Shown here piece after piece: positions 19,759 to 63,272 of a DNA stretch of 64,000 nt. Where the stretch lies: IMG/VR virus record IMGVR_UViG_3300012979_000028, positions 21,985 through 85,984 of that record; one strand, written 5' to 3'. Every line of letters starts with the position of its first letter. Within the stretch, counting starts at the first letter, position 1. The stretch is from a virus. Its lineage: Duplodnaviria > Heunggongvirae > Uroviricota > Caudoviricetes. A program made the translations under genes and the position numbers. The notes under the pieces were generated by a model. It did no database searches. It was not told where the DNA came from and was given only the letters and a program-made list of their open reading frames with translations.

Positions 19759-20034
19759 CAATTTTGTTAATCTTTAAGTTCATTTTCCTTAAAGTTCAGA
19801 CTATATCATCACCCTTTTTATATTGGGTGAGCTGCACTTCGGGATAAGGAATTTCACCTTAAACCTACTCTCTTTCGAGATAGTCGTTACACCTTCTTAT
19901 TTCTAAGCTTGGCACGGTATTGGGAATCTCACCTTTCACCGTTAGCTCTATTTACATTTACATAGAACACCCTAGATTTCTAGGTTCACAGCTTTCTGCA
20001 CTTATAAGTTTCCCTATAAGGCCACAAATTATTT
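19759..20034 (-). mobile_element. ORF-less group I intron (B-type)
   Basis: Starts AAATAATTTGTGGCCTTATAGGGAAAC immediately after exon-1 ...GGATTCCAT. P7 CGACUAUCUC/GAUAUAGUCUG. P9 hairpin CTTTAAGGAAAATGAACTTAAAG. Confidence 0.6.
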
Positions 20035-22566
20035 ATGGAATCCTGAGCTCCATCTTTTAGAACTCTTTGTATTTACTTCATAATGTACAAAACACTTTTC
20101 TACAGCCCCTTGTTCTCCTGGATCTGCTTCTCTTAGTGGAATATGGTCTTCACCTTCGATCACCCACTTATTATTAGCCTTGAACATTCCGTCGATATAA
20201 GTAGAGAGGACTTTAGCATATTTTTTATAGAGAAGATAATTAATAACCAGCTTTCTCATAAATTTAAAATCCTCTTGTAGGTCAGACTCATCGAACGGTT
20301 TGCCATAATCTAGGTATTCTCCATTAACATAACCAAAGAATTGAGCTTGAGCGATAAATCCATTAAAGTTAGACCAGATTTCTTTAACTTGATCTGCATC
20401 TTGAGGAACCACAGTCACTTTTTTAGTACCATCTGCTTTAGTTTTAGTAGAGGTTGAAGTTTTAATAGTTCCTAGGTATTCTCTTGATAGGTTATAAACT
20501 TTTTCTGGATAGTCTCCCAAGTCCTTTCCTTCAGAGTTATAATAGTTTTCTGTAGAAGTTAGGAAATGTTCGAATGCTTTTTCTATACTATCTATTCCTA
20601 GGTTTTGATAGAATTTCTCTGCATCTTTGAGTTGTTGAGTAGAGTCTAGGATAGCAGCAAGGAAAGCAGTTTGATATTTATACAGTTCGGCGAATTCATG
20701 GCATATCAGATCATTTTCCTCTGGGCTAGTACACATAAATAGGTTCTTACTAATATATTCAGAGTATTCACTTAGAGTTAGCCAAGATCCGAATGCATAG
20801 ATTTTATCAGGAATGTTATTAATATCTTTAAGTTGGTTACTAGATATTTTCTTTAGTTCTTTATAAGCTTTTTCATAGTACATATATTTTTCTAGTTCTA
20901 TTAGCTTATTATCCACCTTAATAGAATCTAGTCCAATAAGTGTTTTAATTTTTTCAGCTATAATTCCTAAGATTTTCTTTTTCTTAACAATTCCATCATC
21001 TATCTTAGTTTTCATTTTAACTTCGGTCATAGAACTTCTTACAATATCCATGAAGTCCCCAGCAAAAGTGTCACCATAGCTCATTCTAAGACTACCTTCA
21101 TTTACTCCCGTATCATAAGCATCCATTGTGTCTATGTTAGAAGATAGGATATACTTAGTTATCTCTAGTGGATCAGCATTAAAGAACTTACCGTCACGAA
21201 TTAATTTTTGAGCAACCGGATGGAATTTCTTTATATTAGCCATTTTACTAGAGTGTGTATTCATTTTAATCTTACATCTAGCGGTAGCACAATAAGTTAT
21301 TCCCCAAGCCATCATTTTCAGGGATTCGTTATGATATTGAAGTCTAAAGTTTTCATCAATATACAAACCGCTCGAGTGAAGAAGAGAGCCTAGTCTGGAA
21401 TTATCAAGGAAAGTTTCAAATGCATCAGTACTATATTCATTTTTCTTAGATTCATATAGCATTAGTGTATAGAAAGCATCCAAGTTACAGTAATAGCCTA
21501 AGATATCACTAGGAATACACATAAACGGATTTCCCCAATATTCTAGGATAAGACTTTCGAATTCTTTCACGTAGTTAGGATATCTTGTACTTAGTTCTGT
21601 CCACTCCGGCGTATTCTTGAAATTGCTCTGATCTACCTTAAGAATTTTTTGTCTATCTTTCTTGGTAGTTCCGGTAGTAGTAAATAGCATCTCATCAATC
21701 AAGTCAGAGATTCTATCAAATTCAGTATCCCATGCATTGACTCCTAATATATTTTGAGCTGTCCATTTGAGGGAATATTTCTTCAAGTGATTTCCATCCA
21801 AGACATTAATAGTAGAAGCGTCACAGAGATTATAAAGAGTTACACCAAGCATTCTATGACTAACTTGGAACTCGTACTGCATATTATAGACCCATATCTT
21901 TCTTTGTCTTTTCTCCAAGAATTCACCAAGTCTCTTCAGTAGTTCTAGGTATTCTCCGGGGGTATTATTATGTCTACAATCTGTAAAGCTAATAAATCCA
22001 CCAAACTGAGAATTACATAAAGATGCTCCAGATATTTCAAACCATTTATCCAAGGGCATACCAGAAGCTTCATAGTCAAATCCAAAGTTAGTATCTTCAG
22101 GGAGGCTATCCATATAATTTATCATGTTAATAGACTCCTGAACGTTATGAAGTATTTTGTGTTTAAAGTTGAAATTAACCTGTTGTGTAAATTCTGGAGA
22201 TAAGAAGTAGTTTATATCCTCTTCTTTCGGTTTATCATCTCCAATACATTTCACAAAAGCGCCACCCTCTATGGATAGTCTTTTTAATTTACAACAGTCT
22301 GAGAAGTTTTCATTACGTATACCAAAATGAAAATACTGTCTCAAACATGAAAAAGCACCAGGGTCAGCTAACAATACACCATCCCCAGGCCCTAATGTTT
22401 TTACTAATTTAATTTCTTCGTCAGTGAGTACGGGTATTTCTGATTTTCTACTTGATGTTCTAGCGATTAATATACTTTCACTAGTAGAAATACCATCAAT
22501 GAAAAAATAGTTGTTATTGAAACTACCGTTTTCATCTGAACTTAGAATAATTAATCTTTTGTTCAT
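20035..22566 (-). CDS. family A DNA polymerase, exon 1 (3'-5' exonuclease domain + N-terminal part of polymerase domain)
   Basis: Exo I FGFDYEASGM. Exo III YCNLDAFYTLML. C-terminal part ...KVLSTYIDGM...FVHYEVNTKSSKRWSSG aligns with Klenow KSTYTDKL...HTSYHQAVTATGRLSS. The tracked ORF terminates 3 codons into the intron. Confidence 0.8.
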
Positions 22567-32802: not shown

Positions 32803-35523
32803 TTAGCTAAATTCAACTACAATCTTAGAATCAGCGTCAACGTCTAGCTTTACTTTAGTTTTATCACTGACACTTTCTTCTAGCATCTTCTTACAAATTT
32901 CCTTCTGAATGTAGTCGTTGATCAATCGTTTCAAAGATCTAGCGCCATACTTAGGATCTACTTTAGAAACAACTAGCTCTTTTACCTTTGAAGTAGCTTT
33001 GATATCAAGTTTTCTTTCTTTCTTAATCATATCATGCAACTTCTTTAGCTCAAGGTCGTAGATATTTCCTAGTTTATCCTTATCTAGACTATTGAATACG
33101 ACAATCTTAGTTAGTCTGTTAAGGAACTCTGGACGAAATTCATTGTTAACCTCTTTCATCACGGTATTAACATCAAACTTCTTCTTTTCCTCACCTTCCA
33201 ACTTTCCGAATCCAATACCACTACCTTTCAGTTCTAGAGCCTTAGTACCTACATTTCCAGTGAAGATAATGATACAGTTTCTACAGCTTACTTTTTCACC
33301 AGAGCTTAGAGTAATTTCACCTTCTTCCAGCATATTAAGCCAGATATTATATAGGTTACTGCTACTCTTTTCAATCTCATCAATTAGTAGAACTGTGTAA
33401 GGCTGTCTTTTAAGAATATACAACCTAGGCTCTGTACTATCAAAACCAACATAACCTGGAGCAGATCCTAAGAGTTTACTTTCACTCCAATCTTGCATAT
33501 ATTCACTGCAGGAAATAGTTACAAGATTTTTCTCACCACCAAAGAACTCCTCTGCAATTGTTTTAGCCATCAAGGTTTTTCCTACACCAGTACATCCAAC
33601 AAACAAGAAGGATGCAATAGGTTTCTTTGGATCACGTAGTCCTAGTAGATTCTGTTGTAATGCGATACTCAACTCTTCTACTGCCTCTTCCTGACCTACA
33701 ACTTTCTTTTCAATCTGAGCTTTCATTACTCTAACTTTGTCTAGGTCAGTACTCTTTATCTTATCAACAGGTACACCGGAAGTTTCAGAAATTACTTTAA
33801 CCACATCATCAATAGTAACTGTAGTCCAAGAAAGTCTATCCTTCTCTAGTTTGGCTTTTTGCTTTTCTAGATCCAGCTTAAGTTCATCAATCTTATCTTT
33901 GAGTTCAGAAGCCTTGTCGAAATTATCAAAGTCGTTTAGGATAATATCATTCTTTGTTTTACTTAGACTAGCAATTTCATTTTCTAGTGTTTTAATCATA
34001 GAAGTGTCTGCCGGTCTAGAAATTTTAACCTCTGAACCTGCTTTATCCAAGATTCTAATAGCTTTAGCAGGGAAGAAGCCATCGTAAATATATCTATCTG
34101 CCAATTCTACACAAGCGATCAGGGCATCATCGGCGTACTTTACTTTGTGATATTTCTCGTAAACCTTTGAAACTCCCTTAACTATGCTTATTGTATCCTG
34201 AATTCCTGGTTCTCCGATAAAGATAGGTCCAAAACGTCTGACTAGAGCTTTATCTTTTTCAATAAATTTTCTATACTCGGCTGTTGTAGTAGACCCGATG
34301 CACTGAAATTCTCCTCTACTCAAGAAAGGTTTTAGAATGTTTGCCATATCACCATTACCCTCTTTTGCACCAGCTCCAGCACCCATCATATTGTGAATTT
34401 CATCAATATATACAATGACATTCTTAGCATTAATCACCTCTGTAATGATAGTCTGTAGTCTCTCTTCAAACTGGCCTCTATACATACAACCAGCCACTAC
34501 AGCATTAACATCGAGATTGTAAATTACCTTATCTTGTAGAAATTCAGGTACTCTCTTATCTTTCTTTGCAATAAGTCCAGCCAAGAACTCTATTATAGCC
34601 GTCTTACCACAACCAGGATCACCCAAGAGTAGAGGATTATTACAAAGGCGACAACTAAGAACTCTAATAATCTCCATGACCTCATTATCTCTACCAATAA
34701 CTGGATCATAGTTGCTATTAAGTGCTTTCTCATTCATATTAATAGCAAAGGTATCTAGAGTTGGAGTGTTAGTTTCTTTTTTCTTGAATCCTGAAACAGC
34801 TCCATCCATGCCAAACTTCTCAAACTCTTTCTTGGCACTCTTCTTAGCTTTTTCGTAGTCATCCTCTTTACTACTCTCAGCCACTCTCTTCTTTACCCAA
34901 TCCTCTACATTCTTCTCTAGGTATCGTTTGAAGTCCTCCGCCATGTCATCATCTTCTTCACCGTTAGATTGTCTTTTCTTGAATTCAAATCTACTAAGAG
35001 AGGGAGACTTCTTGTAATACTGCTCAATGTCAATACCATACTTCTTTAGAACAGTCAATGAATCCTCGTAAGTTAACTTGAATTCTTTGATAGATACTTC
35101 CATGGTCAAGAATCCGATAATGATGTGTGAAGTATCTAGAGAAAACTCATCTGGATCATCTCCCTTCATCTGATAAGAAGCATTCAGTATATAGATACAC
35201 TTCTTAATGAATCTATCTAGCTCATCTGTATACTCACACTTGTCCGGATCTCCCATGATTTCAACTTTAGCAGCCTCTTTGAAACAATCATTTAGCTCGT
35301 TACATAAGTTGTCGCGATCTGTAATTGAAAGATTATTAATTAACTCTAAGAATATTGGACAGTCTACATTTCTAGTAGAATCACTCAAACTATCTCTGTA
35401 AGTTCTGACAATACTTAGAATTAATGAACTAGCGGTGATCTGATTTAGCTGCTGTCCCGTTGATAGAATAGCTGCTCTGCTTATAATCTCGCTTAGCTCT
35501 CTACTAAATTTTACTCTTTTCAT
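32803..35523 (-). CDS. ClpC/ClpB-like Hsp100 AAA+ chaperone (two NBDs + Clp_N repeats)
   Basis: NBD1 LLLGDPGCGKTAI...VIVYIDEIH. NBD2 FLFVGCTGVGKTLMAK...VLLIDEIEK plus sensor-2 region GARSLKRLI. N-terminal Clp_N-like repeats. Confidence 0.85.
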   Translation of the reverse strand: MKRVKFSRELSEIISRAAILSTGQQLNQITASSLILSIVRTYRDSLSDSTRNVDCPIFLELINNLSITDRDNLCNELNDCFKEAAKVEIMGDPDKCEYTDELDRFIKKCIYILNASYQMKGDDPDEFSLDTSHIIIGFLTMEVSIKEFKLTYEDSLTVLKKYGIDIEQYYKKSPSLSRFEFKKRQSNGEEDDDMAEDFKRYLEKNVEDWVKKRVAESSKEDDYEKAKKSAKKEFEKFGMDGAVSGFKKKETNTPTLDTFAINMNEKALNSNYDPVIGRDNEVMEIIRVLSCRLCNNPLLLGDPGCGKTAIIEFLAGLIAKKDKRVPEFLQDKVIYNLDVNAVVAGCMYRGQFEERLQTIITEVINAKNVIVYIDEIHNMMGAGAGAKEGNGDMANILKPFLSRGEFQCIGSTTTAEYRKFIEKDKALVRRFGPIFIGEPGIQDTISIVKGVSKVYEKYHKVKYADDALIACVELADRYIYDGFFPAKAIRILDKAGSEVKISRPADTSMIKTLENEIASLSKTKNDIILNDFDNFDKASELKDKIDELKLDLEKQKAKLEKDRLSWTTVTIDDVVKVISETSGVPVDKIKSTDLDKVRVMKAQIEKKVVGQEEAVEELSIALQQNLLGLRDPKKPIASFLFVGCTGVGKTLMAKTIAEEFFGGEKNLVTISCSEYMQDWSESKLLGSAPGYVGFDSTEPRLYILKRQPYTVLLIDEIEKSSSNLYNIWLNMLEEGEITLSSGEKVSCRNCIIIFTGNVGTKALELKGSGIGFGKLEGEEKKKFDVNTVMKEVNNEFRPEFLNRLTKIVVFNSLDKDKLGNIYDLELKKLHDMIKKERKLDIKATSKVKELVVSKVDPKYGARSLKRLINDYIQKEICKKMLEESVSDKTKVKLDVDADSKIVVEFS

Positions 35524-47772: not shown

Positions 47773-49086
47773 TTAATACTTAATTGAGCCTCCGATTGTA
47801 TTTCCTTCTATCGCTGGGAAGTATATCAGACTACAAGCCTCTGTACCACACTCAATCTTTTGTACCTTCATGTACTTACCTCCTTCGAATATTTCAAGGA
47901 TCACATAGTCATATCCGTAAATTGAGATGAGGTCTGCTGGTTTAGCTTTCTTTGGTAATATGAAATTCTTTGCATACCTGCTATTAACGGATCCACTCTG
48001 TACTTCCCAAGAATAAACCTTCTCTAAGATCAACTCTTCCTTCGTCTTTTTTCTCTTCTCCTTATCCTTAGGCTTTCCATCTCTTTCATCCCAAGGGTCA
48101 CGTTCATAAGAAAGTCTTCTACGCCCTCCAGTACCGTATTTCGAGATAATGCCCTTAGTTTCATCATTAACTACACTCTTAAACTCTTCCATACTTACTG
48201 TATGATCCTGACAATCAACGATGAAGTAAGGCACTATAATTCCAGTCTTCTCAATATTAAGATACTCTAGTGCTTTAGAAGGAGATACACCCATAATATT
48301 AACCTCATCTACAATAGCTTTAACTATATCTATTGTAATGACCTTCAGTTGTGATACTTCCTTCAATAGCTCAGCCTCATATTCTGGATGTTTTAGGTTA
48401 TCCTTAATAAATGACTTAACTATAGATGGATCTAGGTTCTTGTAAGTTCTTGAATACAGAATACGTCCAGGTCTTGAAATCAAGTTTGGATTAATCGACA
48501 GTGCGTTAGTTGTAAACAAGAATACATGAGGAATATCTGTAGAAAAAACTCCATCCAAGATAGGCAATAAACTCTCTCCAGCTGTTGAGACTCTACGTTT
48601 ATTTCTTTCATAATCCTCATCATCATCGTCATCACGTACACTAATAGGTAAACCATTACTGAACGTCTTCTCAAATTCATCAAAGAAGAAGCAGATTGGT
48701 TGATTCCAACGACTGATGAAATCTTCTCCTAAGTTTGGAAAGTTAGTTCCTACGATAATAACAGGTAGATTTAGTTCGTTTGCAATAGTCTTAGATATCA
48801 CAGACTTACCAGCTCCTTTACTACCATTAAGAAGGATACCAAAGTTCTTTTTCATACTTGGATATCTCTTAAGAACGTAGGAAATAAATTCGTCGTCTAT
48901 TGGATATTTCTTAAAAGGAAATTCAAAACGATCTCCCTTTCTCTCCATGAAGAACTCTCCAGTCTGGGATTGCTTTAGAATGTATACTCCAAGAGGCAAT
49001 TTACTCAAAGAAGAGTCTGTAAACTTAGGGTCAATAGTATAAATATCATTTCCCCTCTGGTTAATTACATAATCAATCTTTTTCAT
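47773..49086 (-). CDS. AAA+ family ATPase
   Basis: Walker A GSKGAGKS. Walker B ICFFFDEFEK. Confidence 0.6.
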   Translation of the reverse strand: MKKIDYVINQRGNDIYTIDPKFTDSSLSKLPLGVYILKQSQTGEFFMERKGDRFEFPFKKYPIDDEFISYVLKRYPSMKKNFGILLNGSKGAGKSVISKTIANELNLPVIIVGTNFPNLGEDFISRWNQPICFFFDEFEKTFSNGLPISVRDDDDDEDYERNKRRVSTAGESLLPILDGVFSTDIPHVFLFTTNALSINPNLISRPGRILYSRTYKNLDPSIVKSFIKDNLKHPEYEAELLKEVSQLKVITIDIVKAIVDEVNIMGVSPSKALEYLNIEKTGIIVPYFIVDCQDHTVSMEEFKSVVNDETKGIISKYGTGGRRRLSYERDPWDERDGKPKDKEKRKKTKEELILEKVYSWEVQSGSVNSRYAKNFILPKKAKPADLISIYGYDYVILEIFEGGKYMKVQKIECGTEACSLIYFPAIEGNTIGGSIKY

Positions 49087-50062: not shown

Positions 50063-52225
50063 TTACTTGCCTATATTTTGTAACTCTTCCTCAATACATT
50101 TTTCATAGTAATCATAAGAGTTATATTCCAAGGCTTCCTCTAATCTACTTTCACTTAGACTCTCCCCATGCTCTTTAACTAATTCTAAGAAGCGAGACTG
50201 AGACATTTCACCTTTCTGACCAAGTTCTTTTCCAACCACTAAGAGCAATTTTTTATTTTCCTCTAAGATTTGTTTAGTTCTATCTAGGCAGCGTTTGAAA
50301 AATCCTCTTACTTCAATCATAGCTTCATCATCATTCATACCAAGTGGAATACCGTTATTTAATGATTCTCCATCCTTAGTATAAGACATAAAGTTTTTCA
50401 GACCACATCTATAAACAGCATTAGTTAATTTATCCCAAGCATCACAGATATCACTACTACTGCCTAATAATCTCTTGTCATCATCCTGGAACGTAATTTT
50501 CTCAGCATACCAACCTCCAGCACTAATACAAACATCATTCTTTATATCCATGATGCTATCAATCTCATTAATTCTATCTTTATCATGAGTTACACAGAAG
50601 CCTCCATGATTAGTAGAAACTGCAACAATACTAAGAGGAAGTTTACCAGTCAGATAGGACATTACAATAGCGTGTCCTGCCTCATGAATTCCACAGATAA
50701 ATCTAGTCTTTCGGTTTACTGGATCTCTATCTCCTCCTAAGTTTAATTTAATAGTCTTAGTATCTGTATGTCCATTAGAATACTTTAGATAAACCTGAAC
50801 CTCTGGAACCTTAAAATCTGATTCGTCAACATCAATTTCTACACTAATATCTTTCTGATCTCCCACATATAATAAGATGTCAGATAAGAATGGTGTAAAT
50901 AGTGAGTTGATTGTTGATAGAATAGGTCTTACTCCTTGGGTTGGGAATACACTCTCCGAATAAAGTAACTGTAAGAATGAAAGTGTAGTTTTAATCTCTA
51001 CTCCAAACAATTTCTCAGTTTCATTACAGATTCTATCAACCTCTTTCTTGATAATATCCTTAAAGTGTTGTTTCCCTAGAGTTGGATATTTAATCAGGTT
51101 ATTTCCGAATCTGGCTATCTGTTCTGGTCTAAATCTACGACGAAGTGCATCTTTAATATCTCCAATAGTTACTTTAGATGTCTCTTCATGAAATATATCA
51201 GCATCAAGGTCAGAACTCATATCACCTGAAACTTGATATGCCTCATCTAAGTTACCAATACAAAAAACCAAGCCCTTAGATACGTCAATGGTCACTGGAG
51301 TTACTAAGCAGCTTCTCACTTGGTTAATATAGTTGTAAAATTCTCCTAGTGTTTTAATGCTATTAACTTTATCAAATACAGTTCTCATTGTAGCACTGCC
51401 GTTAAGTTTTTTCTCTAAAGTTAATAAGCTCTTTAGAAGTTTAGAGGATACTGTATCTGTACAATCTTCAACTAGTAGAGAAAGACTTCTGTAATTATCC
51501 TGAATCTCTTCCTCATTTTTCTTTGTTCTTTTATAATTCTCAAATCGTCGAGGCTCCCATAAAAATCTATCCTTGTAATAAATAAATCCTAGGGAGTCTA
51601 GTATTTTCTTAACTTCATCTCTATTAACAACTTTTCCATCTACTAGCTTTATATTCGCATTACTAGGAGACTCTTGTAAAAATTCTTCAAGAGAGGTTAG
51701 AAAATTGAAGATCTCATAGGTTTGATAGTCATTATTTTCATTAAACTCTACAAGACCTGAGTCAATAATAGTAAAGATAGATTGTAAGGATTGATTTCTA
51801 ACTTCACATCCATTCTCATCTATAAATCTTGCATGTTGAAACTCATCAAAGATAAATACAGTTTTCTCACAGAGTTGGTTTATAGATCGAGGGTCTTCTA
51901 TTTCTCCTACCATAAAATAATCATACAACTTCCTAGAAATAGACTTATAACTATCTTCACCAGCTTCAGATCCACAGTCTACAGCTATTGTACTTTTCTG
52001 AAGATCTAGTAATTCCAGAAGTCTTCTTACTACACTAGTTTTTCCTACTCCACTCATACCCCAGAGAGAAATAACAACAGGTCTTTTTAAAACTTCTGGA
52101 GTAATATACCAAGGGGTGATGCTTTTTCCAATCTCATCTATAATAGAGTCTAACCCTATAAATTCAGTCTTTAATTGGGATAGTACTTCATCTAGCTTTT
52201 TGATCTTTTCAAGTCTTTCACTCAT
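50063..52225 (-). CDS. FtsH-like protein: divergent P-loop/AAA-like N-terminal domain + M41 zinc metalloprotease domain
   Basis: Walker A WGMSGVGKTS. Walker B VFIFDEFQ. C-terminal GIHEAGHAIV (HEXXH) plus ...SAGGWYAEKI...GSSSDI, parallel to the FtsH peptidase domain. Confidence 0.65.
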   Translation of the reverse strand: MSERLEKIKKLDEVLSQLKTEFIGLDSIIDEIGKSITPWYITPEVLKRPVVISLWGMSGVGKTSVVRRLLELLDLQKSTIAVDCGSEAGEDSYKSISRKLYDYFMVGEIEDPRSINQLCEKTVFIFDEFQHARFIDENGCEVRNQSLQSIFTIIDSGLVEFNENNDYQTYEIFNFLTSLEEFLQESPSNANIKLVDGKVVNRDEVKKILDSLGFIYYKDRFLWEPRRFENYKRTKKNEEEIQDNYRSLSLLVEDCTDTVSSKLLKSLLTLEKKLNGSATMRTVFDKVNSIKTLGEFYNYINQVRSCLVTPVTIDVSKGLVFCIGNLDEAYQVSGDMSSDLDADIFHEETSKVTIGDIKDALRRRFRPEQIARFGNNLIKYPTLGKQHFKDIIKKEVDRICNETEKLFGVEIKTTLSFLQLLYSESVFPTQGVRPILSTINSLFTPFLSDILLYVGDQKDISVEIDVDESDFKVPEVQVYLKYSNGHTDTKTIKLNLGGDRDPVNRKTRFICGIHEAGHAIVMSYLTGKLPLSIVAVSTNHGGFCVTHDKDRINEIDSIMDIKNDVCISAGGWYAEKITFQDDDKRLLGSSSDICDAWDKLTNAVYRCGLKNFMSYTKDGESLNNGIPLGMNDDEAMIEVRGFFKRCLDRTKQILEENKKLLLVVGKELGQKGEMSQSRFLELVKEHGESLSESRLEEALEYNSYDYYEKCIEEELQNIGK

Positions 52226-53028: not shown

Positions 53029-53271
53029 TTATTGGTTAATACTATTGTTAACTTTTAATCTAGTTACGATACGACCTCTTGTTAAATCGTATGGGCTGAC
53101 TTCGATTTTCACTCTATCTCCTACAATAATTCTGATAAAGTTTTTTCTAATCTTGCCACTTATTGTACATATTATTTCTTGATTTGCCACATCCGCTAGT
53201 ACTCTAAACATTGCATTTCCTAGTTCTGCAACAACTTCACCTTCTAGTTCTATATTATCTTGCTTTGCCAT
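53029..53271 (-). CDS. infA: translation initiation factor IF-1 homolog
   Basis: [24 protein letters not shown]...[35 protein letters not shown] is collinear with bacterial IF-1 (MAKEDNIEMQGTV..LPN.MFRV...ISGKMRKNYIRIL.GD.V..E.TPYDL.KGRI..R). Confidence 0.8.
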
Positions 53272-55552: not shown

Positions 55553-55882
55553 ATGGGAGCAATCAGCTATTTTAAATCTTTAGCTGTTCCGGGGAGTGGT
55601 AACAGCAGTAAAGCCTTTGCACTTCTTCTTTCGGCAATTGTTGGGGCTTTGATGGGTTTGTGTATTTGTTTTGTACTAATCTTTGATGTAGTAATAGATG
55701 GACAGGTAAACACAGACTTGAATGAATTAGGTTGGTTTCTTCTATGCACAGGAGCTTACAGTTTTGGTGCAGGAGCTGGAAAGATAATTACAGACTCTCT
55801 AGGCTCTAAAACAAAGACTGCTGTAGAGGATGAATTTGATAGGAGATTAAAGCAAGACAAAGAAAAGAAAGAAGAAGAGTAA
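55553..55882 (+). CDS. small membrane protein (plus strand)
   Basis: 109 aa. Two TM helices and a charged C-terminal tail, so holin-like topology is possible. Confidence 0.45.
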   Translation: MGAISYFKSLAVPGSGNSSKAFALLLSAIVGALMGLCICFVLIFDVVIDGQVNTDLNELGWFLLCTGAYSFGAGAGKIITDSLGSKTKTAVEDEFDRRLKQDKEKKEEE

Positions 55883-55934
55883 AAAAAAAAGAATCAGGGA
55901 GTTAGTTTATTTTCTCTCTGATTCTCTCTTTCTT

Positions 55935-56618
55935 TTATAAACAGCTCTGAATAATTTGTCGAACTGCCATCTTTGCTATACACTCACTTCCAAACTCACT
56001 GTCAAAGTAAAATCTAGACTTAGTAGAGATAATTTCAACCTCAAGCTCATCTCCATCTTTATCTACTGACTTCACAATTACTTTCACTGATTGCTTTCCT
56101 GGATCAATCTTATACTTATCCCAGAATATCTTAGGAACTTGAATAGGAGTATCGATTTCAGTTAGCTCCAAGTCACTTAAAGGAATTCCTAGATCTTCAA
56201 CATCAATACTATCAGCTGTTATTGTATTGTACTTTGCATCAAATTCTAGAATAAGCATCTCTTTAAATCTCTCAGCTCCTCCAAATCCAGTCTCAGAAGT
56301 TACAGGGATTATAGAATTTTCATCATTAATCTGAAAAAGCGTACTATCCCATTTAAAAGTATCTCCCGGTTTTAGTTCTGGTGGATTACCCAAGAACTCT
56401 CTATTTTGAATTAAGTTCTCAGGTTTCAATGCATCTTCACTCCCTGGATCTACACCATCTTTTAATTTGGCTGGAAAATCACTACTCTCCCAATCCACTA
56501 TTCCATTCAGCTTTGTTAATAGGTTAGGGATTTCAATGAAGTAGTAACGATCCTTTAACTTTTCATCACTAGGATCAAGACCGTGTTTCATGCCTCTACC
56601 GAAAATAGATAAAATCAT
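55935..56618 (-). CDS. hypothetical protein
   Basis: 227 aa. 4-nt overlap with the upstream IMPDH-like gene. Confidence 0.5.
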   Translation of the reverse strand: MILSIFGRGMKHGLDPSDEKLKDRYYFIEIPNLLTKLNGIVDWESSDFPAKLKDGVDPGSEDALKPENLIQNREFLGNPPELKPGDTFKWDSTLFQINDENSIIPVTSETGFGGAERFKEMLILEFDAKYNTITADSIDVEDLGIPLSDLELTEIDTPIQVPKIFWDKYKIDPGKQSVKVIVKSVDKDGDELEVEIISTKSRFYFDSEFGSECIAKMAVRQIIQSCL

Positions 56619-57691
56619 AAGTGTATATATTTTACATTATTCTTAAAAGACTTCCAATCAATACTAGAAGTCATAACAAATCCATAATTAAAACACTCAT
56701 ACATTCCCTTAAGCCAAGTTTCTAGATTAGAGTTTATAACTACATTCTCACATCTAGAGTCTACTGGCTTTTTCTTTTTTACAGTACTCTCCCACTTTTC
56801 TACACTAGAATAACCTGCTCTTTCTGCCTGAGTTTGATTTGTAGTGTTTCCTTTATAGATTCTAACTAATTCTAATCTCTTCAGTGAATCTACATCCATG
56901 TTAACCAGGTCTTCTTTATTCTGAGGTTCTAGGACTCTTTTCTTCTCGTTAGTATCATAGACCTCTTTATAAATATCACCATTAGCCTCTAGTAGTTTTG
57001 CAAATTCTCTACCAATCATCACGTAGTCTGCACCTAAAGCAATACATTTTAGGATATCTGACGGACTCTTAATACCACCATCAGCAATAATCTTAGTCTG
57101 CTTTAATCCAACTCCTGTAGTCTTCTTAGTTGTATTTATGTCTATCAGAAGCGAAGCCATAGGATAATAGAAACCGTACTTCTCATAATCCACTAGTGAT
57201 CCAGAACTTAAACCAACTCTTACATAATCAAAATCAGCTCTACAATAGTCTAGGTAAGTAGAAGGGTTTCCAATATTACCACCCATTATTGATACTCTAG
57301 GACCATAAATTCTTCTCAAGTTCTTTCCAATTTCTAGAACCTCTGTATCATGACCATTTCCAGCATCAATACAAATTCTAATCAGTGGTGTTGGAGACTT
57401 ATTGATGTTAACTATAAAATGCTGCTTAACTTCCTCCTTACTGAAAGCTACAAAGATATAACCACAAGCCTCTAATCTAAATTCAATAGACTCAGTTCTC
57501 GGGATTACTGGCTTTATTCCATTATTAGGCCATATTTTCCAGTTTGAAGATCCCACTACAGCTTCCATTGGACTCGTAAAGATAGGTAGAGACGGTTCAA
57601 CATCATCTACTGCAAAATTAAAATTACCTTGTACAGAATTACCTGAATTAAGCTCTGTAGGTAATAATGCTATGCCATCAAGTTCTAACAT
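56615..57691 (-). CDS. IMPDH/GMP-reductase-family TIM-barrel protein lacking the canonical catalytic cysteine
   Basis: PIFTSPMEAVVG, RICIDAGNGH, IADGGIKSPSDILKCIALGADYVMIG match GuaC/GuaB blocks. The GIGPGSVCTTR position reads GLSSGSLVDYE. Confidence 0.65.
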   Translation of the reverse strand: MLELDGIALLPTELNSGNSVQGNFNFAVDDVEPSLPIFTSPMEAVVGSSNWKIWPNNGIKPVIPRTESIEFRLEACGYIFVAFSKEEVKQHFIVNINKSPTPLIRICIDAGNGHDTEVLEIGKNLRRIYGPRVSIMGGNIGNPSTYLDYCRADFDYVRVGLSSGSLVDYEKYGFYYPMASLLIDINTTKKTTGVGLKQTKIIADGGIKSPSDILKCIALGADYVMIGREFAKLLEANGDIYKEVYDTNEKKRVLEPQNKEDLVNMDVDSLKRLELVRIYKGNTTNQTQAERAGYSSVEKWESTVKKKKPVDSRCENVVINSNLETWLKGMYECFNYGFVMTSSIDWKSFKNNVKYIHL

Positions 57692-57732
57692 ATTTTATAA
57701 TTTTATACTACTATCTATAAGAAATTTAGGGC

Positions 57733-58599
57733 TTACATACTTATACTATCCATGTACCCAGTTAAGAGCTTTACATAATCCGCATATTCCTGAGTTTCAA
57801 ATATCCACTCTCCCCTCTGTCTAGTCTCTTCTCCCGGATAATGTATGTCAACCTCTTTAAATACTCTACACGGATTGGCTTGAAGAATGAATACCTTGTT
57901 AGAAATATAGGCAACTTCTTCAATACTATGACTTACATTGATAATAGTAGGGTCATCTAGTGAAGGGTCATAGAATATCTTCAACATAATATTCTGTACT
58001 TCCCTCTTCATCTTAATATCCAATGCACCTGTAGCTTCATCAAATAAAATAATCTTTGAATTACAAGCTAGACAACGGGCAATAGCTACTCTCTGTTGTT
58101 GACCCCCGGATAGTTTAGAAGGGTATTTATCTACGTGATCCTTTAAACCTACACAATCTAGAAGTTCGAGGGCTCTATTCTTAGCTTCCGCCTCACTAAT
58201 TCCTCTACAAGTCATAGGTATCATCACATTCTCTAATACAGTATACCACTCAAAGTTACTGTAAGTCTGAAATACCATTGGAAAACTGTGATTACTACTT
58301 ACAGGCTCTCCATAAACTTTTACAGTACCTTCATTAAATTTACTAAGTCCTGCAATAACCTTTAACATCTGAGACTTACCACAACCTGAAGCTCCCATGA
58401 TAGAAACTAGTTGAGCTTGACCAGGAATATCAGGGATGGTTAAGTTAAAATTCTCAAATAACTTATACTCATTAGGCAAGCCAGGGTTAAAGATGTGTGT
58501 TATATTCTCTAACTGGATTACTGGAGTTAGGTTATTATTCTGCTGACTACTTGGTAAATCAGAAGCCATCAGATTATCTATGTTTATTTGTCTACTCAT
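57733..58599 (-). CDS. ABC transporter ATP-binding protein (NitT/TauT family)
   Basis: Walker A GASGCGKS. Signature LSGGQQQRVAIAR. Walker B ILFDEATGALD. Confidence 0.85.
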   Translation of the reverse strand: MSRQINIDNLMASDLPSSQQNNNLTPVIQLENITHIFNPGLPNEYKLFENFNLTIPDIPGQAQLVSIMGASGCGKSQMLKVIAGLSKFNEGTVKVYGEPVSSNHSFPMVFQTYSNFEWYTVLENVMIPMTCRGISEAEAKNRALELLDCVGLKDHVDKYPSKLSGGQQQRVAIARCLACNSKIILFDEATGALDIKMKREVQNIMLKIFYDPSLDDPTIINVSHSIEEVAYISNKVFILQANPCRVFKEVDIHYPGEETRQRGEWIFETQEYADYVKLLTGYMDSISM

Positions 58600-59411
58600 T
58601 TTCTTTTGAATTTAAAGATTACTGGTTCGAATAATTTAATAATCTGATCCTGCAATATTCCAATCAAGATTATAATCAACAAGAGGGCATAAACACTATC
58701 AATCTGACTTTGCTTCGTCATTGTGTTTATTAAAGCTCCTAAACCACCATCTTTGTTTATATTTTCTGCAATAGTTACGTAAGTATAGGATATTGCTACT
58801 AAACTTCGAATATCACTATAAACTCTTGACATAACAAAAGGGACATATATCTTCCAGAATGTATCCCACTTTCCTAATCCGATAGTTTTAGCTGTCTGAA
58901 GGTATACATTATCTTTCGGGTTATTAGGGTCTTGTAATTCAGTAACTCTTTGTGTAACTACCGGAAGAATATAGATCAAAATACCAAGAGCCAAGAAACT
59001 AGCCTTCATATCAAATCCAATTCCGAATATAGCTACCATAATTCCACTAACTGCAGGAAGAGGTAAAAATCTTATTGCTTCTAGTGGCTTTTGGAACATA
59101 GCTCTAGGAAGTGGATATATACCTATAATAAAACCTGCAGGGATAGCTATAATCAGTGCATATACGTAGCCAAGCAGATTAAGAGAGATAGTATACCAGA
59201 TATTACTAAAGAGCCTAGACTCCGTAATTAATCTAGGAATACTTGTTAATACATCTATCGGGTTTGGTAAAATTTTATTAGATATCCAACCCATCTTTGT
59301 AACTAGAAACCAAAAAAGTAGGAGGAATATACCCCCTACTATACCAGTTATTATTGATTTCTTGGATTCTAGACTTCCTCCGAATTTCAATAACTCCTTC
59401 ATACTTCTCAA
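58596..59411 (-). CDS. ABC transporter permease (NitT/TauT family)
   Basis: 6-TM topology. 4-nt overlaps with both neighbours. Confidence 0.7.
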   Translation of the reverse strand: MRSMKELLKFGGSLESKKSIITGIVGGIFLLLFWFLVTKMGWISNKILPNPIDVLTSIPRLITESRLFSNIWYTISLNLLGYVYALIIAIPAGFIIGIYPLPRAMFQKPLEAIRFLPLPAVSGIMVAIFGIGFDMKASFLALGILIYILPVVTQRVTELQDPNNPKDNVYLQTAKTIGLGKWDTFWKIYVPFVMSRVYSDIRSLVAISYTYVTIAENINKDGGLGALINTMTKQSQIDSVYALLLIIILIGILQDQIIKLFEPVIFKFKRK

Positions 59412-60907
59412 TCTGCTAGCAAGTTAAGGTCTGTTGTACGGTAGTTGATGTTGTCTCCTTGAACCCCATCTTTAATAGCATGCTTAGGTCCATTTCCAAC
59501 AACTACGATACGATTCTTATTAACTCCATACTGCTGAACTAGGTAATCTGCTACACTCTGAGCTCTTTTCTTTGATAGCTCTATGTTTGAATTATAATTA
59601 CCTGTAGCATCTGTATTACCCTCAATTCGAATTCTAGTATTTGCGTAAGCCTGAACAATATCTACAAACTCACGGTCAATAATAGATCTAGCATCATTAT
59701 CCAAAGTATATCCGGCAGTCGGGAAATTAATAGTAACTTTCTTATTACTAAATGCCGGTTTTGTTTCATCTGCTGTAGTCGGAGTTGCAAAGTTCTTCTC
59801 TACAGTACCGAAAGCTTCCTGTTTATTAGGCAACTTATTATCACTGACTACATTCTCAACAATATCAGTGTAAGCTACTTTAGACCAAGGTAATACTGAC
59901 TTACATAAACCTAGCTGACTATACTGATAACTCATCTTACTATAAATTCTCTCACCAGTCATTCCAGAATAATCAGTACTAATTCCAAGCCAATTCTTTT
60001 CATCCTCTAGAGTTGCATAGTTAATAGTCTTTGATGAAGCTAGTGCAAATTCAACATCAGTCTCAAAGGCCTGTGCAAAACTTGATGCTGCCTCTTTGAA
60101 TGCCTCTTTATTATTAGATACCTCTGAATTAGCTGCCAGGATCGCTTCTACAATTTTCTTAGCTAGATCAGAATTAGCCTCCAACCACTCTTTCTTAGCT
60201 ATCAATCCATCAGAAACTAGCATATTAGACTGAGCTGTAGAAGTAAGTACATGAGCTCCGGAAAATGCTGCTACACAATCTTGATCATCGGGTGCCCAAA
60301 CTGCTGCACAATCCACATTCTTAGACTTAAATAACTGTGCTGCCTCAATACCAGAACCTACTTTAACTGGAATAATATCAGACATCGACATTCCAGAGGT
60401 CTCTAGTGCATTAATTAATAAAGTATGACTTGCTGTTCCCTCAGAATATGCTACACGCTTTCCACGAAGATCTGAAACTGTCTTTACTGAATTATTAGCT
60501 ACCAATGCATCAGCTCCAGCACTAAAATTAAGCAACATAAAATACTTTACATCAGTCATTGTACCTGCTGAACCCATTTCTACAGGCAGAGCATCTAGTG
60601 TACAATACTCAATGTCGACATCACCATTCTTCAGGGCTGATCTAGCGGCATCAAAATCATCCATAATTACAATCTTCAACTTAAGACCGTAATTTTTAGC
60701 GAAGAAGCTTTCATCAGATCCCTCAAGACCGCCATTACCCCATACGATTGGAGAGAATCCACAGTAAGTATTCACCACTACTGTAGCATCTGACTCCTTA
60801 GACTTACTACCTTTAGTTCCTCCAAATGCATAAATAATTGCACCTAGGATTGCTACTAGAACTGTAATAACCACAATTCTACCTGCTGTTGTTAATCTAC
60901 TAAACAT
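59408..60907 (-). CDS. TM-anchored NMT1/SsuA/TauA-like substrate-binding protein fused to C-terminal OmpA peptidoglycan-binding domain
   Basis: N-terminal TM helix. Periplasmic binding-protein domain. C-terminal ...NTDATGNYNSNIELSKKRAQSVADYL (OmpA_C motif). Confidence 0.7.
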   Translation of the reverse strand: MFSRLTTAGRIVVITVLVAILGAIIYAFGGTKGSKSKESDATVVVNTYCGFSPIVWGNGGLEGSDESFFAKNYGLKLKIVIMDDFDAARSALKNGDVDIEYCTLDALPVEMGSAGTMTDVKYFMLLNFSAGADALVANNSVKTVSDLRGKRVAYSEGTASHTLLINALETSGMSMSDIIPVKVGSGIEAAQLFKSKNVDCAAVWAPDDQDCVAAFSGAHVLTSTAQSNMLVSDGLIAKKEWLEANSDLAKKIVEAILAANSEVSNNKEAFKEAASSFAQAFETDVEFALASSKTINYATLEDEKNWLGISTDYSGMTGERIYSKMSYQYSQLGLCKSVLPWSKVAYTDIVENVVSDNKLPNKQEAFGTVEKNFATPTTADETKPAFSNKKVTINFPTAGYTLDNDARSIIDREFVDIVQAYANTRIRIEGNTDATGNYNSNIELSKKRAQSVADYLVQQYGVNKNRIVVVGNGPKHAIKDGVQGDNINYRTTDLNLLAD

Positions 60908-60943
60908 GATTTTTTATTTTAAAGTTAATATTTCTATTTTTGT

Positions 60944-61981
60944 TTAACACCATTGATGACCACCTCCCCGTTTAGCTGGAGTATTAGGAACTTCAACATA
61001 ATCAACATCCTGGATATCCTCTGTTGAAAATGAAGTAAACTTATCATACTTATCCAAGATAGCCTGAACTTTAACATCATTGACTTCTTGACCTAAGTTA
61101 TAATCCTCCAAGATACCATTAGAGTCATTGATAAATCTCTCCATCTCAGCAATACTCATATTAACGGTATTAGTGATATGCTCAATAGCTAGTTCTTCCT
61201 CTAGAGACTTAGTATCACCGTTCATAATAGCTGATATAGACTTTAGAGCAGACTGTTGAGCTTTCGCCTGTTCATATGCATCTTTACTTCTAGAGAGTTC
61301 AAGTTCACTTCCCTTAATTCTCTCTCCGGCAATGATCTCTAGCTTTTCTATAACTTTCTGATACTTCTCTGAAACTTCTATACGCTTTTTCTGAGATGTA
61401 ATCATTTTATCCAAGTTAGCTACATCCTGGTTTAAGTTATTTATTGAAAGCTGAACTCTTAACTTATCATTTGGCTGTAATTCCTCTTCGCTTAGTTTTC
61501 TTTTCTGTATTTTTAGCTTGGATAGATTCTCAGCCATGTCACTTTCGTATTCCTCAAGCTTATTCTTCATCTTTATCAGAATACTTCTAAGTGTAGTGTT
61601 ATTCTCATGTACTCCGGAAAGTTTGATCTTCATATTCTCAATCGAACGTTCAAGAATACTGATAGGATCAATCTTAACAAAAGCTCCTACAATCTTTCTG
61701 TTTATTTGTAGCCAGAGTAGAGATACCCACTTTCTAATGTCGCTGCTAGTAAGTACAAACAAGATAGCAGCTATTCCCACAAGTTCTGCTATAAAAACTA
61801 GTAAATTCTCTGCAGCGGAAATCAAGAACGGAAGAGCCTTGAAAAATCCAAATCCAAGACCAAGAGCTGCACCTATAGCCGTAATCTTGGCAAACGTTCC
61901 GCCAGGTCTATTAAACATGTCAGAGATTGATAAGTTCTTTCCCTGATTACCTACTGTTGGAAAACCTTTATTATCCATCAT
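60944..61981 (-). CDS. membrane-anchored PspA/IM30-like coiled-coil protein
   Basis: Two N-terminal TM helices, then DPISILERSIENMKIKLSGV... which resembles the PspA start [20 protein letters not shown], then a long coiled coil. Tentative. Confidence 0.4.
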   Translation of the reverse strand: MMDNKGFPTVGNQGKNLSISDMFNRPGGTFAKITAIGAALGLGFGFFKALPFLISAAENLLVFIAELVGIAAILFVLTSSDIRKWVSLLWLQINRKIVGAFVKIDPISILERSIENMKIKLSGVHENNTTLRSILIKMKNKLEEYESDMAENLSKLKIQKRKLSEEELQPNDKLRVQLSINNLNQDVANLDKMITSQKKRIEVSEKYQKVIEKLEIIAGERIKGSELELSRSKDAYEQAKAQQSALKSISAIMNGDTKSLEEELAIEHITNTVNMSIAEMERFINDSNGILEDYNLGQEVNDVKVQAILDKYDKFTSFSTEDIQDVDYVEVPNTPAKRGGGHQWC

Positions 61982-61982
61982 C

Positions 61983-62762
61983 TTAGATATTTAAGTTATT
62001 TATAATTTTTACATCATTATCCAAGACATTCATAAAGAAGTCGAATGTTGCTCTGAATTTCTGCTCTTCTTTATTAATCTCCTCCGTGGAAACCTGAATC
62101 TCCTGTTTGATTGAGTTAATACTAGCTTTCATTTCCTCAATACTCTTCTTCAGCTCTTCAATTTGACCTTGTCTTTTCTCAATCTCAAGCTCAGTATTAG
62201 AAATGACGCTCTCTTTATTTCCAATCTTTTCTAATCTCTTTGCCTCGAACTGACTCTGACCATCCTGCTTCTCTTCACTGATAAAAGCTCTGTAAGTCTC
62301 AATGCTCTTCAAAAGTACATCCTTACTAAATTCTGGATGTTGAGCTTTGAGCATAAGAAAGGCAGACTGCATTCTCTTCTCAATTGGATCACCGGTTGCT
62401 CTTAGACTTTCTGAAAAATTGCGGATCTCTAAGTAATTAGGTCCTGGCAAATTACGGTCTGCAAGTACTTCCCAAAGATGTTTAAGTCCCGCTTCATCTA
62501 CTTCATTAATGACTGTAGAATACTGTGTCGTCGATGGTATCACAGTTGTCGTTGTTTGAGTCGGCGTCACTTCAGTTTTCTTTTCAACTTTCTGTTCACC
62601 TTCATCCTTAATAAAAAAACTTTTAAAATCCATCTTATTTATTTTTATTAATCTACATTTATAAGATTTTAAGGGGACAAGAAAAATAGAGACACAAAGG
62701 CCTCTACTTATTATCTCCAAATTTTTATAATCCACTTGAGCCAACACACTACTAGTATCCAT
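61983..62762 (-). CDS. coiled-coil hypothetical protein
   Basis: 259 aa. Confidence 0.5.
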   Translation of the reverse strand: MDTSSVLAQVDYKNLEIISRGLCVSIFLVPLKSYKCRLIKINKMDFKSFFIKDEGEQKVEKKTEVTPTQTTTTVIPSTTQYSTVINEVDEAGLKHLWEVLADRNLPGPNYLEIRNFSESLRATGDPIEKRMQSAFLMLKAQHPEFSKDVLLKSIETYRAFISEEKQDGQSQFEAKRLEKIGNKESVISNTELEIEKRQGQIEELKKSIEEMKASINSIKQEIQVSTEEINKEEQKFRATFDFFMNVLDNDVKIINNLNI

Positions 62763-62828: not shown

Positions 62829-63272
62829 CTAAAGTTCATGGAGTTGATCAGTAATTTCTTTTAATACTTGCTCAATTTCCTCTACAGTACAGTCATCTCC
62901 CAAGTATCCATGTTCCATACAGATATCCAATACTCCAATCCAATCTACATACTCTCCGTTAATTAGTGGAATGCCAAGGGATCTATCATCTATAAACAAA
63001 TCTGCATGAACCTTAGGACTCTTTGACCACTTTCGCTGCTCAGGATTCAGGTTTATACCCCACAGATTAATACCTTCCTTTACTAACCAATTTCCAGCAT
63101 TAAGCGAATAAAACCCATCTCTTACTGTATTCAGGATAATCTTTATACCCTTAGATTGCATCAACTTTAGTACAGGAATAGCTCCAATAGGTTTACCGAT
63201 GTTAGGAAACTCATCTGTTACACAAGTTCCATCAAAATCTACAGCAACAATTTTAACTTTACCATCTTTCAT
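62829..63272 (-). CDS. HAD-superfamily phosphatase
   Basis: Motif I VAVDFDGTCV. Downstream DD motif FIDDR. Confidence 0.6.
   Translation of the reverse strand: MKDGKVKIVAVDFDGTCVTDEFPNIGKPIGAIPVLKLMQSKGIKIILNTVRDGFYSLNAGNWLVKEGINLWGINLNPEQRKWSKSPKVHADLFIDDRSLGIPLINGEYVDWIGVLDICMEHGYLGDDCTVEEIEQVLKEITDQLHEL

Follow-up and report, generated by a model that had tools for sequence, protein, structure and literature searches.

A predicted wall-tethered ABC importer with adjoining coiled-coil genes in a probable huge phage

According to Ravi et al. (2024, mSystems, PMC11237479), bacteria carry operons in which PspA/Snf7 genes stand together with ABC transporter genes and a gene for a periplasmic binding protein (PBP) fused to an OmpA domain. 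In their example from Ca. Handelsmanbacteria (OGG56892.1), a PspA gene is followed by genes for SIG+PBPB+OmpA, a permease, an ABC-ATPase, a transmembrane (TM) SIG+TM+Snf7 protein and an AAA+ protein, and a tie between membrane remodelling and solute transport was suggested. Here, we analysed a related gene cluster in a stretch of 64,000 nucleotides (the window) of the IMG/VR virus record IMGVR_UViG_3300012979_000028, positions 21,985 to 85,984. As judged from the predicted proteins, its conserved unit is a cassette of five genes in the order g0-g1-SBP-permease-ATPase, in which SBP is a substrate-binding protein with an OmpA domain, and this cassette is a probable variant of the operon type of Ravi et al. 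Phage carriage of the cassette appears to be unreported so far, with no description in the Lak, Jug and PSP literature searched, a search made without the original Lak paper (Devoto 2019).

The five-gene cassette and its importer

An original prediction, made from the letters and their open reading frames (ORFs), had delimited an operon of six genes at 55935-61981. All six are present with the sizes then given, co-oriented on the minus strand and coding for 345, 499, 271 (268 from the ATG), 288, 358 and 227 aa. The unit itself was drawn wrongly, since g0 (61983..62633, minus strand), a coiled-coil protein of ~216 aa and the first gene of the cassette, lies beyond these coordinates and was missed. 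The table-11 ORF of g0 (61983-62762) is over-long and a terminator-like hairpin at 62684-62709 falls within the extension. Because the hairpin lies inside this ORF, the ATG at 62633 is taken as the start; the g0 orthologue of the closest relative begins at the equivalent position. The ATGA overlaps were found at two junctions only, permease/ATPase and IMPDH-like/g6, while the remaining ones have spacers of 36 nt (g1/SBP), 41 nt (ATPase/IMPDH-like) and 5 nt (SBP/permease). The last of these depends on the ATG start, which is the one chosen by gene callers; with a TTG start the two genes would share a TTGA overlap.

All genes are intact and under purifying selection, without signs of a decayed operon. 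No frameshifts were found, and the ATPase and permease have their motifs. Compared to a relative with 87-96% identity, the five cassette genes and the IMPDH-like gene have dN/dS values of 0.04-0.12, and g6 has a value of 0.26. An alternative code with TAG as sense, as in Lak, was rejected, as the table-11 ORFs are already contiguous and TAG readthrough gives trivial extensions only.

The SBP gene (59408..60907, minus strand) encodes 499 aa. A single N-terminal hydrophobic helix (residues 11-29, nt 60821-60877), without a lipobox, is followed by a flexible linker, a type-II PBP domain of the SsuA/TauA class (approximately residues 45-375) and an OmpA-like peptidoglycan-binding domain recognised by Pfam (residues 395-485, nt 59453-59725). 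Both the helix and the OmpA fusion had been predicted and both are real, the OmpA domain reaching 63.3 bits against a Pfam cutoff of 27.2. The helix may serve as an uncleaved anchor or as a signal peptide. PF09084 (NMT1) and PF13379 (NMT1_2) are also above their Pfam cutoffs, and sequence matches in the PDB are to SsuA, TauA and OmpA domains. The AlphaFold2 (AF2) model of the protein (pLDDT 89.7) has a TM(target) of 0.76-0.80 to TauA and SsuA. A Foldseek search, which had been proposed for finding the ligand class, returned TauA (6ssy), SsuA (2x26 and 3ksx), PqqT, thiamin/hydroxymethylpyrimidine (HMP) binders and Thi5 as top matches, all at <20% identity. The NCBIfam cutoffs were missed both for SsuA_fam (89.5 vs 163.5 bits) and for TauA (45.7 vs 304 bits). 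By sequence and model, the SBP is clearly of the SsuA/TauA type, a class assignment that does not fix the ligand.

Within the OmpA motif, neither D433 nor R448 varies in alignments of 12 and of 30 homologues. We take these to be the Asp and Arg of the peptidoglycan-binding motif (NTD...LSxxRA), going by OmpA/Pal structures. The pocket region of the binding domain is likewise highly conserved among homologues. The architecture of this protein was at first thought unusual, a view that its homologues contradict: NMT1+OmpA is common to 120/120 best SBP homologues, is named in RefSeq and was described by Ravi et al. (2024).

The permease gene (58596..59402, minus strand, ATG start at 59402 and alternative TTG at 59411) encodes a type-I ABC importer permease (BPD_transp_1, PF00528) of 268 aa, with 36.6 bits against a cutoff of 26.4, multiple TM segments and an EAA-like loop, QTAKTIGLGKWDTFWKIYVP, at residue 172. 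The ABC ATPase (57733..58599, minus strand, 288 aa) matches ABC_tran with 97 bits and has six nucleotide-binding motifs, namely GASGCGKS (Walker A) at 69, MVFQ (Q-loop) at 108, LSGGQ at 163, IILFDE (Walker B) at 183, ALD (D-loop) at 192 and VSH (H-loop) at 222. By its Pfam and NCBIfam families, the transporter is a complete and intact type-I ABC importer of the NitT/TauT (SsuABC/TauABC-like) class, as was predicted. No part reaches the curated NCBIfam equivalog or subfamily cutoffs for SsuABC/TauABC proper: the permease has 50.8 bits for SsuC, where 347 are needed, and the best models for the ATPase (SaoA, NrtCD and TauB-like) all stay below their equivalog cutoffs, with 136 vs 357 bits for TauB.

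The second cassette gene, g1 (60944..61981, minus strand), encodes a membrane protein of 345 aa with two TM helices (~28-78), after which come a long hairpin of helices (106-164 and 170-250) and another two helices. Its AF2 model has a pLDDT of 69 overall and of 80-95 in the hairpin. The protein had been called PspA-like. The window copy is without any Pfam match, PF04012 included, whereas sub-threshold PF04012 matches are present in 5/11 g1 orthologues and in 11/50 members of the wider family (1362 clusters at 50% identity), and no other family recurs. The best orthologues reach E ~1e-5 to 2e-6, or ~22-25 bits vs a cutoff of 33.9. The g1 model in Foldseek gave nothing at E <= 0.001, with Vipp1 entries making up 9 of the top 20, and profile searches of the PDB with g1 and g0 for PspA, Vipp1 and ESCRT-III structures gave coiled-coil noise only. 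A PspA/IM30-like identity of g1, within the ESCRT-III superfamily, is compatible with these signals, weakly supported and not established.

In the g0 protein, a low-complexity linker lies between a conserved N-terminal motif, M-x-(L/F)K-x-(L/F)F, and a C-terminal domain that is helical, and no TM segments are predicted. In the loci of Lak, of IMG/VR contigs and of Bacteroidales, its orthologues directly precede g1. The possibility that g0 and g1 are paralogues was rejected (hhalign probability 7%).

Distribution and proposed function of the cassette

The gene order in other genomes was read by tblastn of the window proteins against fetched loci. The cassette order is kept in Lak-A1, B4 and C1, with SBP matches in 15/15 Lak records, and in 34 of the 38 IMG/VR huge-phage contigs, which are mostly 100-675 kb long with a GC content of 27-40%. 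In the related viral genomes, whose search had been suggested with the original prediction, the transporter order is kept and the linkage to the IMPDH-like gene mostly is not. In three IMG/VR contigs (L044, L047 and L067), g0/g1 do not directly precede the SBP-permease-ATPase trio; a g1-like gene lies 7 kb away in L047, and L067 has a GC content of 49% and an SBP with only 34% identity. Because these three lack adjoining g0/g1 genes, the transporter trio can exist without the coiled-coil pair.

In Lak-B4 (MK250023.1, L001; 7651-9014, 3322-3774 and 4180-4485), three tandem paralogous small ORFs of 152, 146 and 165 aa are located between the SBP and permease genes. All start with MKx(R/Q/H)(N/E)(D/E)LIxKKVLII, and a fourth paralogue is found downstream, together with a 101-aa fragment of the C-terminus of a second ABC ATPase. 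The SBP/permease junction measures only ~0.5 kb in Lak-A and Lak-C.

Outside these groups, the 735-kb phage LR756501 encodes an SBP::OmpA protein (39% identity), a permease, an ATPase and two coiled-coil proteins. The cultured Bacillus phage G (497 kb) has transporter parts and two coiled-coil genes among gp243-gp250, with gp243 as the permease (BPD_transp_1), gp245 as the ATPase, gp249 and gp250 as NMT1+OmpA proteins with N-terminal TM helices, gp246 as a soluble coiled coil starting MAKKSFF and gp247 as an N-terminal TM helix followed by a coiled coil. A common origin of gp246 with g0 and of gp247 with g1 is not demonstrable (hhalign probability 0.5% and 20%), and their likeness is architectural only.

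The cassette is also found in Bacteroidales chromosomes, namely those of Paludibacteraceae, Dysgonomonas and Ca. Azobacteroides. On a 904-kb Paludibacteraceae contig it lies between PorV/MFS/MiaA/GlnA-III and RumA/NIF3, with the same GC content as its flanks (50%). In Dysgonomonas sp. 521 and 'Prevotella sp. 10(H)' it is surrounded by genes for SerRS, GH43, SusD, Sua5 and glycosyltransferases. These two are one lineage, with SBPs in the same 90% cluster. The cassette proteins of 'Prevotella sp. 10(H)' (L018, NZ_JOMI01000003.1) cluster at 90% with those of Dysgonomonas sp. 521, and the genus name looks wrong. Directly after the ATPase gene, Dysgonomonas-type loci have a rhomboid-family protease gene (L016 5964-6530; L018 12237-12818), which is absent from the Paludibacteraceae and phage versions. 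It was not accepted as a sixth cassette member, being limited to this lineage with >90% identical SBPs.

The window cassette has its nearest counterpart in Paludibacteraceae. The two are most alike in the SBP (70-71% identity), permease (70-77%) and ATPase (70-78%), and less so in g1 (57-59%) and g0 (40-44%). In a rough neighbour-joining tree, the window and Paludibacteraceae cassettes are sisters, which suggests a Paludibacteraceae host for the window, and the two bacterial clades nest within viral diversity. The bacterial genome scan behind this tree used two peptide patterns only, and the tree gives no transfer direction.

The reading we favour, with modest confidence, is that the cassette encodes a wall-tethered solute importer coupled to inner-membrane maintenance during long infections, and that the IMPDH-like gene and g6 are separate from it. 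The phage would install its own importer in the inner membrane of the host, where the binding protein, held between the membrane and the cell wall, would deliver a small solute; its fold neighbours bind sulfonates or taurine. The g0 and g1 proteins would form a PspA-like membrane-associated assembly, stabilising or reshaping the inner membrane around the importer. Importer and assembly together would preserve the host's envelope and its energy state while a very large phage goes through its long replication cycle. The IMPDH-like barrel and g6 would belong to a huge-phage gene family that came to lie downstream by chance in this lineage, where they are probably co-transcribed.

Several results weigh against this reading. 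The SBP misses all NCBIfam equivalog cutoffs and has <20% identity to solved SBPs. Searches with g0 in Pfam and the PDB gave coiled-coil noise only, and no relatives were detected outside its own family. No AAA+ ATPase gene adjoins the cassette in the window or in the Bacteroidales loci, the AAA-type genes of the window being >3 kb away. The ATPase/IMPDH-like junction in the window measures only 41 nt and has no terminator-like structure, and the IMPDH-like gene may therefore be co-expressed with the cassette and to some degree functionally tied to it in this lineage. Finally, no capsid, portal, terminase or other virion or packaging hallmark was recognised among the 20 window ORFs scanned.

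The cassette might instead be an ordinary set of auxiliary metabolic genes for importing a nutrient such as sulfonate, taurine, nitrate, bicarbonate or a thiamin precursor, with g0 and g1 unrelated to it. We consider this unlikely, even with a transporter that is complete and intact, with SsuA and TauA as the best sequence and fold matches of the SBP, and with phage-borne SBPs and ABC genes being known (PHROG 293, 'ABC transporter'). In phage and cellular genomes alike, the g0 and g1 genes directly precede the SBP gene even where the proteins share only ~25% identity, which argues that they are one functional unit with the transporter. Moreover, genes for desulfonation or assimilation enzymes were absent around the cassette in all loci examined, and the invariant OmpA domain would serve no purpose in simple nutrient capture.

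A further explanation, to which we give little credence, dispenses with import altogether. The products would then form an ATP-driven device spanning the inner membrane and the wall, acting in superinfection exclusion, lysis timing, wall remodelling or the formation of replication membranes. In the predicted architecture the SBP is fixed at both ends, by the membrane helix and the OmpA domain, and could transmit force or position; the association with proteins of ESCRT-III-like architecture and the recurrence in phages of the greatest size, some with a Gram-positive host among them, would also suit such a device. The permease, however, shows the fold and EAA loop of classical type-I importers and not the fold of a mechanotransmission (type VII) system. 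The conserved pocket region of the SBP is what is expected of a real ligand site, and the same cassette is found in ordinary bacterial chromosomal contexts.

The importer reading can be taken further. The largest phages across host phyla, with the Bacteroidales megaphages including Lak, the record-size 735-kb phage and Bacillus phage G as examples, could carry an envelope-maintenance machine made of a peptidoglycan-tethered importer and ESCRT-III/PspA-like proteins. Phages could even be its main reservoir, because the two bacterial clades nest inside viral diversity in the neighbour-joining tree. This extension is speculative and we think it improbable.

The IMPDH-like gene, g6 and the genome setting

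Downstream of the cassette, the IMPDH-like gene (56615..57691, minus strand) encodes a TIM barrel of the IMPDH/GMPR family with 358 aa. It was predicted to be without the catalytic Cys, and this is upheld. PF00478 matches with 78 bits vs 25.6 over profile positions 120-250, while the NCBIfam scores for IMPDH (68.7 vs 481.5 bits) and GMPR (61.2 vs 397 bits) miss the equivalog cutoffs >6-fold. The catalytic loop reads GxSSGSLVD in place of GIGPGS(I/V)CTT, and in alignments to 3r2g and 2bzn the Cys is replaced by Val. Val or Ile occupies this position in 11/12 aligned family members, and the Thr of GMPR is lost in the window protein. The phosphate-binding motifs (GS, DGGI and GADYVMIG) and a Glu are kept. 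From its sequence, the barrel is unable to run the IMPDH/GMPR reaction through the canonical thioimidate mechanism. One family member (P0233) has a Cys at the canonical position (TTGSLCN), as the sole one of the 12 aligned, and the family may hold both active-type and Cys-less forms.

Compared to GuaB and GuaC, the barrel shares the TIM fold and the CIDxxNGH, GNxxN, GSxx, DGGI and GADxVMxG motifs, and over the core it has ~30% identity with both GMPR2 and the Legionella protein 3r2g. It differs from IMPDH/GMPR in having no catalytic Cys, no GMPR Thr188, no CBS subdomain and a short flap. The family corresponds to PHROG 9582 ('dehydrogenase') and counts at least 120 clusters, mostly on 100-430 kb contigs, with relatives in Lak, the crAss-like cr108_1, phage G and the LR7565xx phages. 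Nothing was found in the literature searched on Cys-less phage IMPDH-like proteins.

The last gene, g6 (55935..56618, minus strand), is an ORFan of 227 aa with no match in Pfam, NCBIfam, PHROGs or the PDB. It is conserved in close relatives only, with 55% identity in the 87%-identical relative (L027) and a further copy in another (L029). A terminator-like hairpin followed by a U10 run is located after g6 (55882..55930, minus strand; dG -20.3 kcal/mol, z -5.8), and 0/200 shuffles fold as well. On the other side, the hairpin at 62684..62709 (minus strand; dG -16.4 kcal/mol, z -3.8) lies between g0 and a 147-aa gene. The latter hairpin is the probable 5' boundary of the transcription unit and the former its probable 3' end. 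Because the two bracket g0 to g6, with none between the ATPase and IMPDH-like genes, these genes probably form one transcript in this genome.

It was the linkage of the transporter to the IMPDH-like gene that had led to the idea of an operon importing or converting a purine or pyrimidine-type precursor in concert with an IMPDH-family enzyme. We regard such a coupling as very unlikely. In its favour, the IMPDH-like gene follows the ATPase gene after 41-47 nt, again with no terminator, in both the window and its 87%-identical relative L027, and the barrel retains nucleotide-phosphate-binding motifs. Yet this narrow clade is the only place where the two adjoin, and the comparative context largely refutes the coupling. 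A 70% relative has g6, IF-1 and the FtsH-like gene downstream of the IMPDH-like gene, as in the window, but a different gene upstream of it, one without homologue in the window. The 54% and 51% relatives have no transporter near the IMPDH-like gene, Lak-A/B/C have it 54-70 kb from the cassette, and it is not beside the cassette in any cellular locus examined. Within 8 kb of the cassette, the IMPDH-like gene is present in 1/38 IMG/VR loci, as is g6, and 36/38 have neither. The loss of both the catalytic Cys and Thr, and an SBP class not known for nucleobase or nucleoside uptake, further speak against the coupling. Because the adjacency is confined to one narrow clade, the inferred purine/pyrimidine uptake is unsupported. 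By gene context, the IMPDH-like gene and g6 are lineage-specific neighbours, not part of the conserved cassette and probably not functionally tied to the transporter.

The predicted viral origin of the window is probable from gene content shared with huge phages, even though no hallmark gene was recognised. GC is 30-37% throughout, compared to 50% in the closest bacterial cassette, and almost all genes run in one direction in ORFan-dominated arrays. Most large ORFs have no PHROG match, with a topoisomerase II large subunit, ATP-dependent proteases and an ATPase as exceptions. Proteins identical or nearly identical to those of the window were found on 325-351 kb contigs. The cassette and the IMPDH-like family are gene content common to recognised huge phages, being present in Lak, LR7565xx, phage G and IMG/VR contigs. 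Nucleotide similarity of the window to phages points to the Lak megaphages and is limited to the cassette; as the 845-aa and 577-aa ORFans also have no Lak homologue, a close relationship to Lak was rejected. The window is very probably part of a huge phage of a non-Lak lineage. That it comes instead from a bacterial chromosome, a plasmid or another large extrachromosomal element is extremely unlikely: the 64 kb without identified capsid, portal, terminase or tRNA genes, the two large ORFans without phage homologues and the bacterial nearest relatives of the cassette (70% identity) are outweighed by the low GC content, the near-unidirectional gene arrays, the topoisomerase II large subunit, ATP-dependent protease, IF-1 and FtsH-like genes typical of huge phages, and the presence of the IMPDH-like and SBP families mostly in Lak and on 100-675 kb contigs classed as viral by IMG/VR.

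Among the other genes of the window, all of the following are on the minus strand. An 80-aa bacterial-type IF-1 homologue is encoded at 53029-53271, and its orthologues in related contigs carry Pfam eIF-1a. The gene at 50063-52225 encodes an FtsH-like protein with an orthologue that has a weak Peptidase_M41 match, followed by an AAA-type ATPase at 47773-49086 and a 906-aa ATP-dependent protease (PHROG 4871) at 32803-35523; these three genes are ~4-25 kb from the cassette and none adjoins it. In the phage database, the 845-aa ORF (20029-22566) matches only the DNA polymerase of an Acinetobacter phage, over a stretch of 158 residues with 31% identity, and it may encode a very divergent polymerase. 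The 147-aa gene just upstream of the cassette (62829-63272) belongs to PHROG 1238, labelled 'phosphoheptose isomerase'. In 'Prevotella sp. 10(H)' (L018 1400-1855), a homologue with 43% identity precedes the cassette by ~5 kb.

Relation to known systems

If the cassette works as proposed, very large phages would go beyond cytoplasmic reprogramming and manage the host envelope with a self-encoded transporter and membrane scaffold. For the otherwise almost unannotated Lak-type genomes, the cassette is a conserved marker with a testable function. It also ties the computationally predicted bacterial PspA/Snf7-ABC-OmpA operons to a measurable setting, namely the cultured phage G and the cultured Dysgonomonas. 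At the same time, the misleading inference of purine/pyrimidine uptake is removed, and a large uncharacterised huge-phage family of Cys-less IMPDH-like barrels is flagged.

Compared to SsuABC and TauABC, the sulfonate and taurine importers of E. coli, the window system matches in the permease and ATPase families and in the fold of the SBP. Unlike these importers, it has an SBP extended by a membrane helix and an OmpA domain, partner genes such as ssuDE or tauD are absent, and its hosts are anaerobes.

Direct orthologues in the same gene order are found in RefSeq under the names 'phosphate ABC transporter substrate-binding/OmpA family protein' and 'PspA/IM30 family protein' (WP_163307416, WP_163307417 and WP_029904578). 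These proteins of Dysgonomonas sp. 521 and 'Prevotella sp. 10(H)' have identities to the window of 50% for the SBP and 25-27% for g1. They differ in being chromosomal and in having the rhomboid gene after the ATPase gene, and 'phosphate' is a generic name.

The gp243-gp250 region of phage G resembles the cassette in its permease, its ATPase, its NMT1+OmpA SBPs, a soluble coiled coil with an N-terminal KSFF motif and a TM-anchored coiled coil. Its order is permuted, the SBP is duplicated and only 25% identical, and the host is Gram-positive.

Like the operons of Ravi et al. (2024), the cassette is a co-oriented cluster that joins a soluble coiled coil, a TM-anchored coiled coil, a signal/TM+PBP+OmpA protein, a permease and an ATPase. 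The PspA/Snf7 identity of its g0 and g1, unlike that of their counterparts in those operons, is not established. It further differs in having both coiled-coil genes first, a PBP of the NMT1/SsuA type and no adjoining AAA+ ATPase gene, and both huge phages and Bacteroidales carry it.

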